DNA from: Plasmodiophora brassicae
Lineage: Eukaryota
DNA: 64,000 nt
Direction: 5' to 3'
Assembly: GCA_036867785.1 (NCBI GenBank)
Contig: CP145412.1
Coordinates: forward strand, 1,302,001 to 1,366,000
The notes under the pieces are model-generated. The model saw only the letters and a program-made list of their open reading frames with translations. It searched no databases and was not told where the DNA came from. Shown piece after piece: positions 20,041 through 25,916 of this stretch (positions within the stretch are counted from its first letter, which is position 1; every line of letters starts with the position of its first letter). The position numbers were made by a program, and so were the translations under genes.

Positions 20041-20926
20041 TCACATGGTATACCGGATCGGTTTCGTCTTGTTGTTTTCCATGTGCACGGTCCACTCCAT
20101 TGAAAACTTGGGCGGGTGCTCAACTTCATCAATGACGGCCTTCTTGATCGCCTTGCCAAGGTTCATGATTAGATCCTTGTTGTCAGAACTGCACAACGAT
20201 TCAGCGGTTCTGGCCTGGCCCAGGTCACGATTGACTTTAACATACGTTCTGTTCCAGACGGAGATTCGGTCGGCAGCGCGACGCCTCGAGATAACAGCAC
20301 CGCAAACCTGCATGACGGAATCCGATTAGTACCCATATCATAAACAGGACTAGACAAGGGAGGTAAGCGACCTCGTCGCCGGTCGGATCAATAGCCTCTC
20401 CGATCAAGCCCAGGACGAGGTTGTCCCAGTACTTGTCCAGCTGGGACCTGTCATGTTTGATGTATAGTATCTGTTACGACCTAGATCAGCAGCGCTCCAC
20501 TAATGAAACAGGATGGCCCACACCCTGAGAAGATCGCGTTCATTACCACAGAGCGATCGTATTGCCATCAGGAAACACGTACCATTTGCCGCCCTTCTCA
20601 TTGGCCGGATCTTCCCACATTGGTTGGATACCCTTCTTGAACAGGTGGTAGTTGCTCTTGAAATCGATGCAACTCGGCCATATTGCATTTCTATAATATC
20701 TACACCAGCGAATACCGTTCAGCAGTCGCACCAAGGGCGCGCATCCGACGACCACACACCCCCAGAATCCCTCGACCGTCTCGAACGATCCGACGGCAGT
20801 CAGGTTCTGCTCCCATTCGCCGCTGCCCCCCGAATGGCTGCCGTTGGCCGGCGCCTGATAGTACCACAGGGTCCACGGCGACTGCAACGGATGCAGATCG
20901 GCGCCGCTGCCGCTGCCGTCCGCCAT
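20041..20926 (-). CDS. EIF4E: Eukaryotic translation initiation factor 4E family protein; multi-exon
   Basis: HPLQSPWTLWY, FETVEGFW, YHLFKKGIQPMWEDPANEKGGKW, LDKYWDNLVLGLIGE, CGAVISRR..DRISVWN. Confidence 0.95.
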
Positions 20927-21041
20927 CGCACCAAACCCCACGCAGAATGACACGAACGGACCGCCCCACCCGTGGCCTGCGGACTGCACTCGTTCAACAA
21001 TGGGTATTGGCGCTTTCAGGACAAAATTGGAATTTTGCGGT

Positions 21042-21064
21042 GATTTCACGGAGTCCGTGAAATC
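21042..21064. repeat. Perfect 11-bp inverted repeat (GATTTCACGGA-G-TCCGTGAAATC) just inside the left TIR
   Basis: Directly visible; the flanking tgcgg/ccgca extend the stem imperfectly. Confidence 0.9.
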
Positions 21065-21093
21065 GCGCCGCATCGGGGGCGCCGCTTGTCGTC

Positions 21094-22206
21094 ATGATCG
21101 TCAGCGCCGTCAGACGTCATCACGCATCTGCGGACACTCGTTTACACTGCTTGTATGGGTACTATATACTGAACCTTGGCAAAAACCATCTTGCGTTTAT
21201 ATACGGAAAATCTCCCTCGACAATATCGAACTGGATCCAGAAGTATGAACGTGATGGTTCGGTTTCTCGTAAGGTGACTCGTCGCATCTACAAGAAACAT
21301 TCCGAACGTCAGCGCCGTTGGATCGTGGAACTGTTCTCTGAACACCCGACGTTATTCTTGCACGAAGCGAGGGCGCGGTTTGCGGGCAAGTTCGCGAAGT
21401 ATATCTCCTGCTCTGAAATATGGGCGATTCTGCAAGAAGCTCGCTTCACTCGGAAACATGTTGAACGCCGTGCCTTGCAAATTCGAAAACTGGACATCGT
21501 TCGATTCTGCAATGATATGCACTTGGTTCGTTGGTCCCGGGAGAGTCTGGTCTTTCTTGACGAATTCGGGGTCGACAATAGGGACATGTTGCGTACCAAA
21601 GGGTTCTGCCTTGTTGGGAAACGCCTAATATACAGAGGGCAGTTCTCCCGGAAGCCTCGACGCTCAATGCTTGCGTTCGCAAGCGTTCGCGGTCTGGAGA
21701 CGTTTTCTCTGTGGAAGGGACTTTCGATCGCAAGACATTTTTCAACTGCTGTCGTCAGTTCGTTCTGCATCATCCTGACATACGCACGTATCCGGGTCGT
21801 ATGTCTGTCTGGATCATGGACGGTGCTCGGATCCATTGCCATCCAGGCATCGTCAATTTCCTGCGATCGCTGGGCATTATGCCGATTTTTTTTGCCAGCC
21901 TATTGCCCGTTTTACAATTCCATCGAGTTACTATTTGGGATGATCAAGCGGCGGCTTCGCGAGCTTTATGATGAGCGCTCCGGTTCCGATATTACTGCTG
22001 TCATCAATGACGTCTTGGTTGAGTTCAGCAACCGTTCAATGGAGGAAGTCTTCAAGAAATGCGGGTACGTTTGCGATCACGAATTCGATCCGTCCATCGG
22101 CATGCACTGCGACCTGAAGGATCTTGAATTTGATGTTACTGTACGCACTGAACAACCCTGGCATCCATTAAGGGCTGTATGTGTCATCGTTCAACTTGTA
22201 GGTTGA
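21094..22206 (+). pseudogene. DDE_3-type transposase with two compensating frameshifts
   Basis: N-terminal HTH-like region (KSPSTISNWIQKYERDG), VFLDE and FLPAYCPFYNSIE are in the main frame. EGTFDRKTF...VWIMDGARIHC lies in a shifted frame between ~21710 and the T8 run at 21886-21893. Confidence 0.85.
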
Positions 22207-22360
22207 GAACCGGGCCACCTGAAGCTAGGAAGGATATACCACGTCGCGGCAACTGGCAACCTCGTGCACGTGTACTCGCTAAGTTCAATATACTTCAACA
22301 CTATAAGCCACTGGTGCGTATTATCGATGGTAACATTCGGGCAAGTCTTCATTTAATGCC

Positions 22361-23335
22361 TTATGCTTCGTCCATGTTCTCCATATCGTTGTCATGATCG
22401 ACGTCGACCTCATTCGTAATCTCAGCCGCGATCCTGCGCCCGAAATCGGATTCGCCTGGACGACTGGCTGCTTCCATCGCGGCGATCATCTCTTCGGTGT
22501 CAGCAGCGGCTTCATGTAGTGATTCAAGCTGCGTCATGAGCAGATTGACGCCCGCCGTGACTGTCTTGAAGCCCGCCGTGACTGTCTTCGCAGTGTCCAA
22601 GATGTCTTCCAGCTTCCTCTTAAATCGTTCAGATACACATCTTGTTACGCGCATGCTCGTCTGCATGTTGTGGAGGACAGCACCCGAGTCTATTGGAACC
22701 ATGCGGAACAGGTGGGATAGATGAGGTGGGGGCGCCTCTGCCGCCCTTTCTTCACGCACCTGCTGCGGCTGGGCCTCGATCCACGCCGCCCACTGCAACC
22801 AGTTCGTATCATAGGCGAAGTACTCCGGATGCAGTCGTCTCAGCGATTCCTTCCGGGCATCCACCAACGCGATAGATGCTGCGCCGGCGCGATCCCTCTC
22901 TCGCTGTAGTAGAGCGTTCGAGACAAGTTTGAACATTGCCGCTGACGTCACCGACAGCGAGTAGCGGTGCACGTACAGAGTGAGCGTCTTACCACAAACG
23001 TGATTGAGAACGTCGCTGTTACGATAACGCGATGGCGGATACGACCGCTTCGCGCTTTCATCGTGCACGACAACGAAATGGTCCAGATCGGCCGCAGTGG
23101 GCTGCTCCTCCGACCAATGCGGCGACCGCCCATCATCGCCGAATCCGACGTGATTCCGGATGTATCCGGCGACTTTCTCCCACATCTGCGACGCCAGGTC
23201 ATCGTACGAGCTGCAGAGAACGTCCCAGGTCCCGAGAGACGGCACCGACGTCTGTCCTTTAAAATCGCGAACGATGATCTTGAAGCACAGGTGGTAGAGT
23301 CCATCACGCTGAGCGACGTCCATGACGGGCAGCAA
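22361..23335 (-). CDS. Transposon-borne second ORF (~320 aa), unknown function, C-terminal coiled coil
   Basis: Intact, intronless ORF between the TIRs and convergent on the transposase. Contains RDRAGAAS, W.QWAAWI and PPPHLSHLF, plus a 21-bp-period duplication at ~22551-22589 (KTVTAG twice). First ATG is near 23323. Confidence 0.75.
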   Translation of the reverse strand: MLPVMDVAQRDGLYHLCFKIIVRDFKGQTSVPSLGTWDVLCSSYDDLASQMWEKVAGYIRNHVGFGDDGRSPHWSEEQPTAADLDHFVVVHDESAKRSYPPSRYRNSDVLNHVCGKTLTLYVHRYSLSVTSAAMFKLVSNALLQRERDRAGAASIALVDARKESLRRLHPEYFAYDTNWLQWAAWIEAQPQQVREERAAEAPPPHLSHLFRMVPIDSGAVLHNMQTSMRVTRCVSERFKRKLEDILDTAKTVTAGFKTVTAGVNLLMTQLESLHEAAADTEEMIAAMEAASRPGESDFGRRIAAEITNEVDVDHDNDMENMDEA

Positions 23336-23574
23336 GTCGCGGTTTGGCCGTCCGACGGAGTTCGCCGGATCGGGAAACGAGGGGTCAGCTCTCGCTTGGC
23401 GCTTCCGCTACCTGCTGATAGCCGTTGCGGCGCAATTCGAGTGCGGCGGGATTTTCCCCGCACGACTCCAATTTGGTGCTGACGCCGCCAATAACGGTAT
23501 AGTAACGGGCGTATACGCAGCAAGATGCCACAGTGAACGTTGAAAACGTGTTTAGAAAAGCGGTCGGAAGGCGT

Positions 23575-24538: not shown

Positions 24539-25916
24539 ATGAGGCAGTGGGGTGCTGCGTTCGCCGCCGGCGCTGCCACCGTACGTTGGGCGTGAGCACG
24601 TGTACGCTGAGCTGAGTGCCAGTGGCAGGCGGCGCGTGCGCGGCTGTCGTCGCGGATGATCCATGCAGTACGCGCTTCGTGATCCGCGCAGGGTATCGAT
24701 CGTGATGGGCGTTGCAGGTCCCGAGGGGGTATCCGAAACGTGTGCGTATCGTGGAGGTGGGCCCAAGGGATGGGTTGCAGAACGAACCGGGCGCTGTAAT
24801 CAAGACGGACGTCAAGGTGGCTCTGATTAACCTGCTGAGCGAGGCGGGACTGTCGGCGATCGAGGCCGCCGCGTTTGTCTCCCCGAAATGGGTGCCTCAG
24901 GTTCAGTATGGCAATGGATGGACCCGCGGGAACGTCTGACATCTGGGCAGATGGCGGACGGCGCCGAGATCATGAAGTCGATACAGAAGCGTGACGGCGT
25001 CGAATACCCGGTTCTCGTCCCAAATCTCGCTGGATTCAAACGTGCTCTGGAAGCTAGTGCTCGCCAGGTAGCGCGCTTGGTTGTGTGTTTATGCGTTCGG
25101 GCAGCAGTTACAGGTTCGTGAACAGGTGGCCGTGTTCGCGTCGGCGTCAGAAGCGTTCAGCCAGAAGAACATCAACTGCTCGATTGATGAGAGCTTTGCA
25201 CGGTTTGAACCGGTCATCCAGGCAGCGCTGGAGAACGATGTGAAAGTTCGAGGGTAGCGTACCACTCTTCAATCTGCTTGCTCGTCGTCTGACAGGACGT
25301 ATGTTCAAGGTACGTGTCCTGCGTGATAGGTTGCCCATACGAAGGCCCAGTTGACTCCGCTGTTGTGGCGTCCGTGTCGCGCCGCCTGCTGGACATGGGA
25401 TGCTATGAGATATCCCTGGGAGACACCATTGGGACCGGAACGCCTGGCACAGTGGAGACCATGCTCTCTGCCGTGACCACGTCCATCCCGATCCATCGGG
25501 TCGCTGTTCACTTTCATGACACGGTCTGTTCGATGTGTCTAACCCGAAACGGGCGGTGCTCACGTTTGAGGTAGTACGGGCAGGCGCTCGCCAACATCCT
25601 GTGCGCCTTCTCGATGGGGGTGTCGGTCGTGGACAGTTCGGTTGCAGGTCTTGGAGGATGCCCCTACGCGCAGGGCGCGACCGGCAATGTCGCCACCGGT
25701 GCGTTGCCCTCCTTTCAGTGCGCTTCCTCTGTTACTGACATTTCGACAGAGGACGTCGTGTACATGCTGCAAGGCATGGGTATTGATTGTGGTGTCGACC
25801 TCGAGAAACTGCTCGACGCCACAAGTTTCATCTGCGATCAGCTAGGTCGCCCTCCAGCTGGGCGAGCCGCCCGCGCCCTTCTCGTCAAACGAGCTAAGGC
25901 GGGCGAATCCGAATAG
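24539..25916 (+). CDS. HMGCL: Hydroxymethylglutaryl-CoA lyase; multi-exon
   Basis: [77 protein letters not shown]. Confidence 0.96.

Follow-up and report, generated by a model that had tools for sequence, protein, structure and literature searches.

Tc1/mariner transposases are the classic example of transposition by one protein and have yielded gene-transfer tools such as Sleeping Beauty, and in PIF/Harbinger elements a second element-encoded, Myb/SANT-like protein binds the transposase. Members of the IS630-Tc1-mariner (ITm) superfamily are said to "usually carry one ORF" (open reading frame) in the part of PMC8533490 consulted. Ciliates have multi-ORF members (Anchois, Sardine, Thon and Tennessee of Paramecium, as well as Tec and TBE), in which, according to the sections consulted, an ITm transposase is combined with conserved extra ORFs of unknown function (PMC3464196, PMC5405496, PMC7325037). 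Gambol, Hiker and Dici are the named neighbours in the IS630-like branch, and the consulted part of the same source describes Dici1 and Dici2 of Diutina catenulata with a DD34E triad, a TA duplication, short TIRs (terminal inverted repeats) as well as extra coding sequences (PMC13469147). Here we analysed a 64,000-nucleotide stretch of Plasmodiophora brassicae (the window; GenBank assembly GCA_036867785.1, contig CP145412.1, positions 1,302,001 to 1,366,000, forward strand), which carries an IS630/Tc1-type transposon with a second gene, ORF2, convergent with the transposase gene. An initial annotation, made from the sequence of the window, had proposed ORF2 as a transposon passenger. Our analysis suggests that it is more than that, given a conserved partner family and a predicted interface that can be tested.

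A convergent gene pair in five lineages

The same convergent gene pair is found in the window element and its copies (family A), in three further lineages of this genome and in one metagenome contig. A search of the P. brassicae genome (G000) with ORF2 returned 30 places, and 43 stretches, with loci fetched at 7-8 kb, were scanned with profiles of both ORF2 and the transposase. Both genes were present in 15 of the 43, always convergent: four copies of family A, eight loci of family B, relics of lineages C (L055) and D (L056), and the metagenome contig L069. All 12 near-complete transposase loci found in the genome (three of A, eight of B and relic D) are accompanied by a convergent ORF2, as are relic C and the internally deleted family A copy on C8; the single-ORF norm of canonical ITm elements does not hold for these near-complete loci, each of which has a second gene. 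In six stretches (L104-L109) the transposase is also of IS630 type but more distant (~31% identity), and ~4 kb around it contain no ORF2 homolog; no profile matched in a further six.

Family B measures 2,851 bp in five of the six full copies checked and 2,846 bp in the other. Its transposase gene has two introns, and its ORF2 is full length once an in-frame intron is allowed for. Relative to family A, the identity is 23% for ORF2 and 48% for the transposase, and the ends are alike in little more than their first five bases and a short motif further in. In a quick tree, families A and B fell on opposite sides of the sampled insect and chytrid transposases. The linked pairs as a whole retain the layout at 23-47% ORF2 identity and 30-56% transposase identity, with short overlaps left aside. 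Several relics of both genes contain inverted, folded-back pieces (L057, L111, L112, L119, L123 and L125).

L069 is an unrelated contig of 33% GC in which an ORF2 homolog (E 3e-66) faces the end of a transposase gene (E 7e-23). A motif resembling the ends of families A and B lies 209 bp before the ATG of this homolog, although L069 itself was consulted in drawing up the pattern. The named relatives of both proteins share hosts, namely Aedes, Culex, Sabethes, Armigeres, Ochlerotatus, Uranotaenia and chytrids. Among Logan contigs, 51 of 87 are 2.3-3.4 kb long and would have room for both genes, which we regard as a hint only. Equal-sized Logan contigs for ORF2 and the transposase were also considered as evidence of linkage and rejected (two matches among 22 and 87, P 0.17).

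Family A is polymorphic and recently mobile

Full copies of family A lie on C4 (the window), C11 and C15. Together with the deleted copy on C8, they have identical ends, unrelated flanks and a TA at both ends in all four cases, as expected of the target-site duplication of the ITm superfamily. The TIRs are 39 nt long, imperfect and 77% complementary when the two ends in the window are compared as inverted repeats; those of family B are shorter and more divergent. The C11 and C15 copies differ from the window copy at 7 and 8 positions across 2,489 bp, one of which falls within ORF2. An end-pattern search recovered the eight family A ends and one further site with neither gene nearby. A contig of public run X12 joins the left end of the element to a flank that, in G000, is unoccupied and has just one TA (an empty site). 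Family A is therefore polymorphic and has recently been mobile.

The transposase of the window copy has lost one base near 21698 and gained one near 21886, which garbles ~63 codons (residues ~202-264) before the frame is restored, and thereby removes the second catalytic aspartate (D243) and part of the predicted ORF2-binding surface. The frameshifted form is present in contigs of runs X1 and X2 and is therefore no assembly error; the intact form occurs in X8 and X12, and both forms are real. The initial annotation had set an open ORF2 against a frameshifted transposase. This is true of the window copy, but the C11 and C15 transposases are intact, and because the window copy is so young, an open ORF2 beside its broken transposase is no evidence of selection.

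The transposase matches Pfam DDE_3, and passes the NCBIfam IS630 model NF033545 with 112 and 123 bits against a curated cut-off of 100. Matches of its N-terminus to the helix-turn-helix families HTH_32 (E 3e-5) and HTH_23 (E 0.016) are under the Pfam cut-offs. The spacing of 34 in the catalytic triad is found in 114 of 120 homologs, and the other six were not scored. The NCBI protein P0163 is the 355-aa transposase with the spliced end. Homologs at 1e-20 number 169 and come from mosquitoes, Bradysia, Chytriomyces and unnamed contigs, with most at 42-50% identity; the only relative in a PDB sequence search is Sleeping Beauty (E 4e-4), and scanning viruses with the alignment of the transposase gave no match.

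The public runs consist of assembled, unstranded contigs, and their status as RNA was guessed. The 61-nt intron of the transposase gene is skipped in contigs of three of four runs, from three studies, which shows spliced transposase RNA. ORF2 is covered by contigs in all four, and a sense ORF2 transcript is likely as far as unstranded contigs can tell.

ORF2 belongs to a conserved family

ORF2 runs on the minus strand from its first ATG at 23323 to a stop codon at 22361-22363 and encodes 320 aa, in agreement with the intact ORF of ~320 aa reported initially; the start given there, 23335, is a TTG four codons upstream of that ATG. The RDRAGAAS, WLQWAAWI and PPPHLSHLF blocks singled out at the time are all present. 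The duplicated 7-aa unit corresponds to a 21-nt tandem (22545-22586, 95% identical) and, because relatives gain or lose 7-residue blocks at the same place, is no more than heptad-length variation of the coiled coil. The acidic tail is likewise there at the C-terminus, and we can add that it contains a conserved D-x-[DEN]-H motif. At NCBI, the ORF2 protein of a sister copy is labelled "uncharacterized protein" of Plasmodiophora brassicae.

When clustered at 50% identity, relatives of ORF2 number 276 with an E value of 0.001 or lower, at least one of them noise (P0139 of Toxocara, a low-complexity false hit), and 148 at 1e-10. Of 30 that were looked up, most are Logan records, and those with a named source come from Culicoides, Aphanomyces invadans, Irineochytrium, Plasmodiophora and mosquitoes of six genera; the common forms are single-module and tail-bearing. 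All seven viral and all three prokaryotic-genome matches of a motif scan were false, as opposed to two true matches among four from metagenomes; a metagenome scan with P0024 gave no match. A Pfam scan of 80 members and NCBIfam named no family for ORF2, a PDB sequence search gave coiled-coil noise and no relative, and phage records gave no family. The leads from the ESM Atlas, to unnamed Arthropoda clusters (0.87) and to DUF2420 (0.77), were both under the bar. RuvC had no match in Pfam, NCBIfam or PDB sequences and was not listed in the fold searches; the elements of the structural model are all assigned to other parts.

Substitution counts indicate purifying selection on ORF2. In family B, there were 5 synonymous changes in 141 sites and 4 nonsynonymous changes in 480 (Fisher p 0.032), and between family A and the C13 relic 10 in 39 and 9 in 129, respectively (p 0.003). 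The ratio of nonsynonymous to synonymous rates (dN/dS) was ~0.23 in two pairs of element copies and 0.44 in a third (the C9 relic); dS was saturated for four of the eight ORF2 or family A pairs outside family B. Such a comparison of copies had been suggested by the initial annotation.

Predicted structure of the ORF2 protein

An AlphaFold2 model built with 80 sequences has a mean predicted local distance difference test score (pLDDT) of 92 and a predicted template modelling score (pTM) of 0.57. The N-terminus, which had been described as alpha/beta-looking, is modelled as a beta-grasp domain (residues 8-125), in which a beta hairpin, a helix and further strands follow the ubiquitin topology. 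The best Foldseek hit is the PB1 domain of Cdc24 (probability 0.92, E 0.024), and 49 of 50 rows from VIA, nearly all ubiquitin-like, align to residues 1-135 at Z 4.5-5.2, a weak range that is common for VIA, with identities of ~5-17%. Weak as these scores are, they converge on a single fold; they do not point to a function. The predicted likeness to PB1, ubiquitin, RBD and UBX is one of topology, with no sequence match and, unlike ubiquitin, the domain is internal and not a conjugatable modifier.

The helical domain that follows is the most conserved part of the protein (DRAGA, L161, H165, WxxWA, PP and F206). Searched alone, it had no clear fold match (best Z 4.4); UBA, CUE and MLLE rows at Z ~3.2-3.6 were not used. 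Beyond a long helix, probably a coiled coil, lies the D-x-[DEN]-H motif. Of 80 aligned members, 76 have it, and in 66 of these it lies within three residues of the end. A wide fold search with the whole model was filled by coiled coils, and a viral structure library gave nothing at E 0.001.

Host-type forms of the ORF2 modules

A P. brassicae gene on C4 (L058, encoding P0006) has no transposase within the 6 kb fetched and combines several ORF2 modules (Table 1); the label "START domain-containing", from one database row, was not confirmed by Pfam. Repeated ORF2 modules are also present in the Culicoides proteins P0032, P0078 and P0289, and in P0023. In P0032, P0078 and P0023 they follow a match to zf-AD (ZAD) that is under the Pfam cut-off, and P0032 ends in C2H2 fingers. 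The tail motif is missing from all six multi-module proteins checked.

These genes drop the coiled coil and the tail and keep the predicted binding domain. We read them as apparent domestications of ORF2 relatives, with ORF2 modules in Culicoides probably built into transcription factors. ZAD is a dimerising domain, and its presence in the midge proteins in place of the lost coiled coil fits both oligomerisation by the coil and a module that acts in the nucleus.

ORF2 as a predicted partner of the transposase

The intact transposase (residues 5-340) and ORF2 (residues 5-312) were co-folded without alignments in three runs, together with three controls. The pair reached an interface score (ipSAE) of 0.66 (runs 0.66, 0.64 and 0.71), and all three controls scored 0.00. 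The runs share at least 75% of their contacts, with a partner pLDDT of at least 76. Among microbial pairs, 51 of 78 solved and 2 of 108 mismatched ones reach the mark applied. The corresponding figures are 39 of 65 solved and 2 of 126 unrelated for eukaryotic pairs, and 7 of 44 for blind neighbours; the four calibration mismatches that passed scored 0.34-0.59. The named contacts join ORF2 residues 171-177, 201-205 and 215-229 to transposase residues 203-208, 219-228 and 301-312, so that the helical domain provides the main part of the predicted interface. D156, D243 and E278 are absent from the named contacts; for residues not named this is uncertain. We know of no comparable solved complex. 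The co-folding that had been suggested initially thus supports binding of ORF2 to the transposase.

ORF2 is almost certainly a dedicated gene of the element that is under selection. Its position between the TIRs, the pairing in five lineages, the signature of purifying selection and the predicted co-fold together support the idea of an accessory factor raised in the initial annotation, and we consider it rather probable that the product is an accessory subunit that binds its own transposase, acting as follows. The helical domain and the start of the coiled coil would dock on the catalytic domain, at two of its helices and an edge strand. The coiled coil would oligomerise the ORF2 protein, and the oligomer may help the transposase complex to form or to stay together on ends that are short and imperfect. 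Outside the predicted interface, the beta-grasp domain and the DxDH tail could reach a host or chromatin partner. By analogy, PIF/Harbinger would be the best functional model, on account of the transposase-binding second protein (predicted here), and it differs in its transposase superfamily, its target duplication and its unrelated partner; no Myb/SANT entry was listed for ORF2 when 80 members were scanned with Pfam or when the helical domain was searched by fold.

Several observations weigh against this proposal. Nine of the 43 stretches hold short transposase relics without ORF2, and seven are ORF2-like only, comprising five short relics (which count here), one host-type gene and L066. L104-L109 represent one other lineage and so make a thin negative control for the pairing. 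Physical linkage outside Plasmodiophora is seen in L069 alone, a second contig, L066, ending before the expected start of the transposase, and for insects the evidence is the host overlap of the two proteins, with no linkage seen. The interface columns are not better conserved than others (mean entropy 2.76 versus 2.61 bits in ORF2, and 2.24 versus 1.40 bits in the transposase), and the best-conserved ORF2 motifs, DRAGA and DxDH, are outside the named contacts. The host-type fusion proteins keep the helical domain without a transposase domain, which suggests a role of its own for it. Finally, the support for binding comes from a model.

Some of these points suit a protein that acts on the host (anti-silencing, chromatin or the ubiquitin machinery) without touching the transposase, in which case the co-folding pass is a false positive. 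The unconserved interface and the pass rate of the blind neighbours speak for it, as do the ubiquitin-like fold and the Culicoides modules, placed between ZAD and C2H2 fingers as in insect transcription factors. However, the score of the pair exceeds those of all four passing mismatches, and members of the family come from Rhizaria, insects, an oomycete and chytrids, groups with different silencing systems. We regard a purely host-directed protein as unlikely.

The co-folding result also serves for a protein that binds the transposase as a brake, that is, a self-encoded inhibitor or chaperone-inhibitor that limits or times transposition, much as ICAD restrains the CAD nuclease, both of which have beta-grasp domains. 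Low copy number (4 of A and 8 of B found) points the same way, and the host-type genes, in keeping the predicted binding domain and dropping coil and tail, resemble a captured restriction factor. Against this, the named contacts include no catalytic residue, and an inhibitor should be easily lost, yet every intact transposase of the lineage found in G000 is accompanied by ORF2. On balance a brake seems distinctly improbable. That ORF2 is a captured host gene carried as neutral cargo, or a domesticated gene serving the parasite (the second option of the initial annotation), has the host-type C4 gene in its favour and is largely refuted, hence most improbable, by the same position and orientation in five lineages, the low dN/dS between element copies, the predominance of single-module, tail-bearing forms and the four near-identical dispersed copies that include the window ORF2.

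Relation to described elements

The TA duplication, TIRs and DD34E triad place the element in the ITm superfamily. It resembles the IS630-like branch further in its pass with the IS630 model, and its matches to an N-terminal helix-turn-helix are weak; it departs from the single-ORF norm in its second conserved, convergent gene, and its ends begin TA-TTG and are imperfect. Dici1 and Dici2 differ in having three coding sequences: in the part of the source consulted, the third is a transposase relic with a homeodomain and the first a protein of 143-146 aa with no homologs, and neither fits ORF2 (PMC13469147). For the comparison with Gambol, Hiker and Dici, lineage motifs gave no hits in the 12 of 14 supplement files of that paper that were searched.

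The ciliate elements differ as well. DRAGA-type motifs had no hits in three supplement files, and by eye, in an unaligned comparison with the consulted parts of the sources, the ciliate ORF2 looks unrelated to ours. Those parts list Anchois as DD32E and some elements with a tyrosine recombinase, and the ORF2 family described here is found outside ciliates. Neither the two-gene lineage nor its parts are described in the literature searched, which did not extend to Repbase, TEfam and subscription papers (Gambol, Hiker), where an annotation is possible; nor are they mentioned in the consulted portions of PMC3212995, PMC11544213 and the clubroot pangenome preprint 10.64898/2026.10.14.759018.

Coordinates and neighbouring genes

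Two genes lie near the element. It is ~80 bp upstream of a spliced gene at 20100-20926 (minus strand), presumably eIF4E from its motif, and the transposase gene is transcribed away from it. An ordinary intron-containing gene at 24670-25916 (plus strand) probably encodes HMG-CoA lyase.

Table 1. Features of the family A element in the window, and of related loci (window positions unless a locus or genome is named)
Feature	Position	Strand	Remarks
Two-gene IS630/Tc1-type transposon, family A	21005..23493	.	2,489 bp including TA at each end
Left end	21005..21043	+	TA target duplication and imperfect TIR; 39-nt arms
Transposase exon 1 (DD34E)	21094..22140	+	Pfam DDE_3; D156, D243, E278 in intact copies
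Out-of-frame stretch	21698..21886	+	Window copy only; two compensating indels versus C11 and C15
Transposase intron	22141..22201	+	61 nt, GT..AG, 3' end of gene
Transposase exon 2 and stop codon	22202..22222	+
ORF2	22361..23323	-	320 aa; convergent with transposase gene
C-terminal D-x-D-H motif	22394..22405	-	ORF2 residues 307-310
Long helix, probable coiled coil	22466..22687	-	ORF2 residues 213-286; holds the 21-nt tandem
Helical domain	22703..22903	-	ORF2 residues 141-207; most conserved part
Predicted beta-grasp (ubiquitin/PB1-like) domain	22949..23302	-	ORF2 residues 8-125; model and fold search
Right end	23455..23493	-	Imperfect TIR and TA; 39-nt arms
Family B example	L048:654-3504		Probable in-frame ORF2 intron ending L048:1268
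Host-type gene L058 (P0006)	G000:C4:513464-515167		Three tandem ORF2 N-domains and one helical domain
Empty TA site	G000:C6:1127332 (L103)		Occupied in run X12

Implications

A broader picture, which we put forward tentatively and hold to be somewhat doubtful as a whole, is that of an undescribed, eukaryote-wide lineage of obligately two-component IS630-like transposons, in which the ORF2 family would be a required subunit linking the transposase to host chromatin. Hosts would have captured the module at least twice, in the Plasmodiophora gene and in the Culicoides ZAD factors, perhaps to tame the transposase or to reuse the chromatin link. If so, a widespread branch with a second protein on the catalytic domain would show how such enzymes are regulated or guided, and the predicted surface offers a place to test it. 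It would also give a meaning to a family whose "uncharacterized" members in mosquitoes, midges, oomycetes and chytrids number a couple of hundred or more, and add a case in which transposon modules were built into insect ZAD zinc-finger factors. For P. brassicae itself, the element is polymorphic among clubroot samples and is therefore a current source of insertions.
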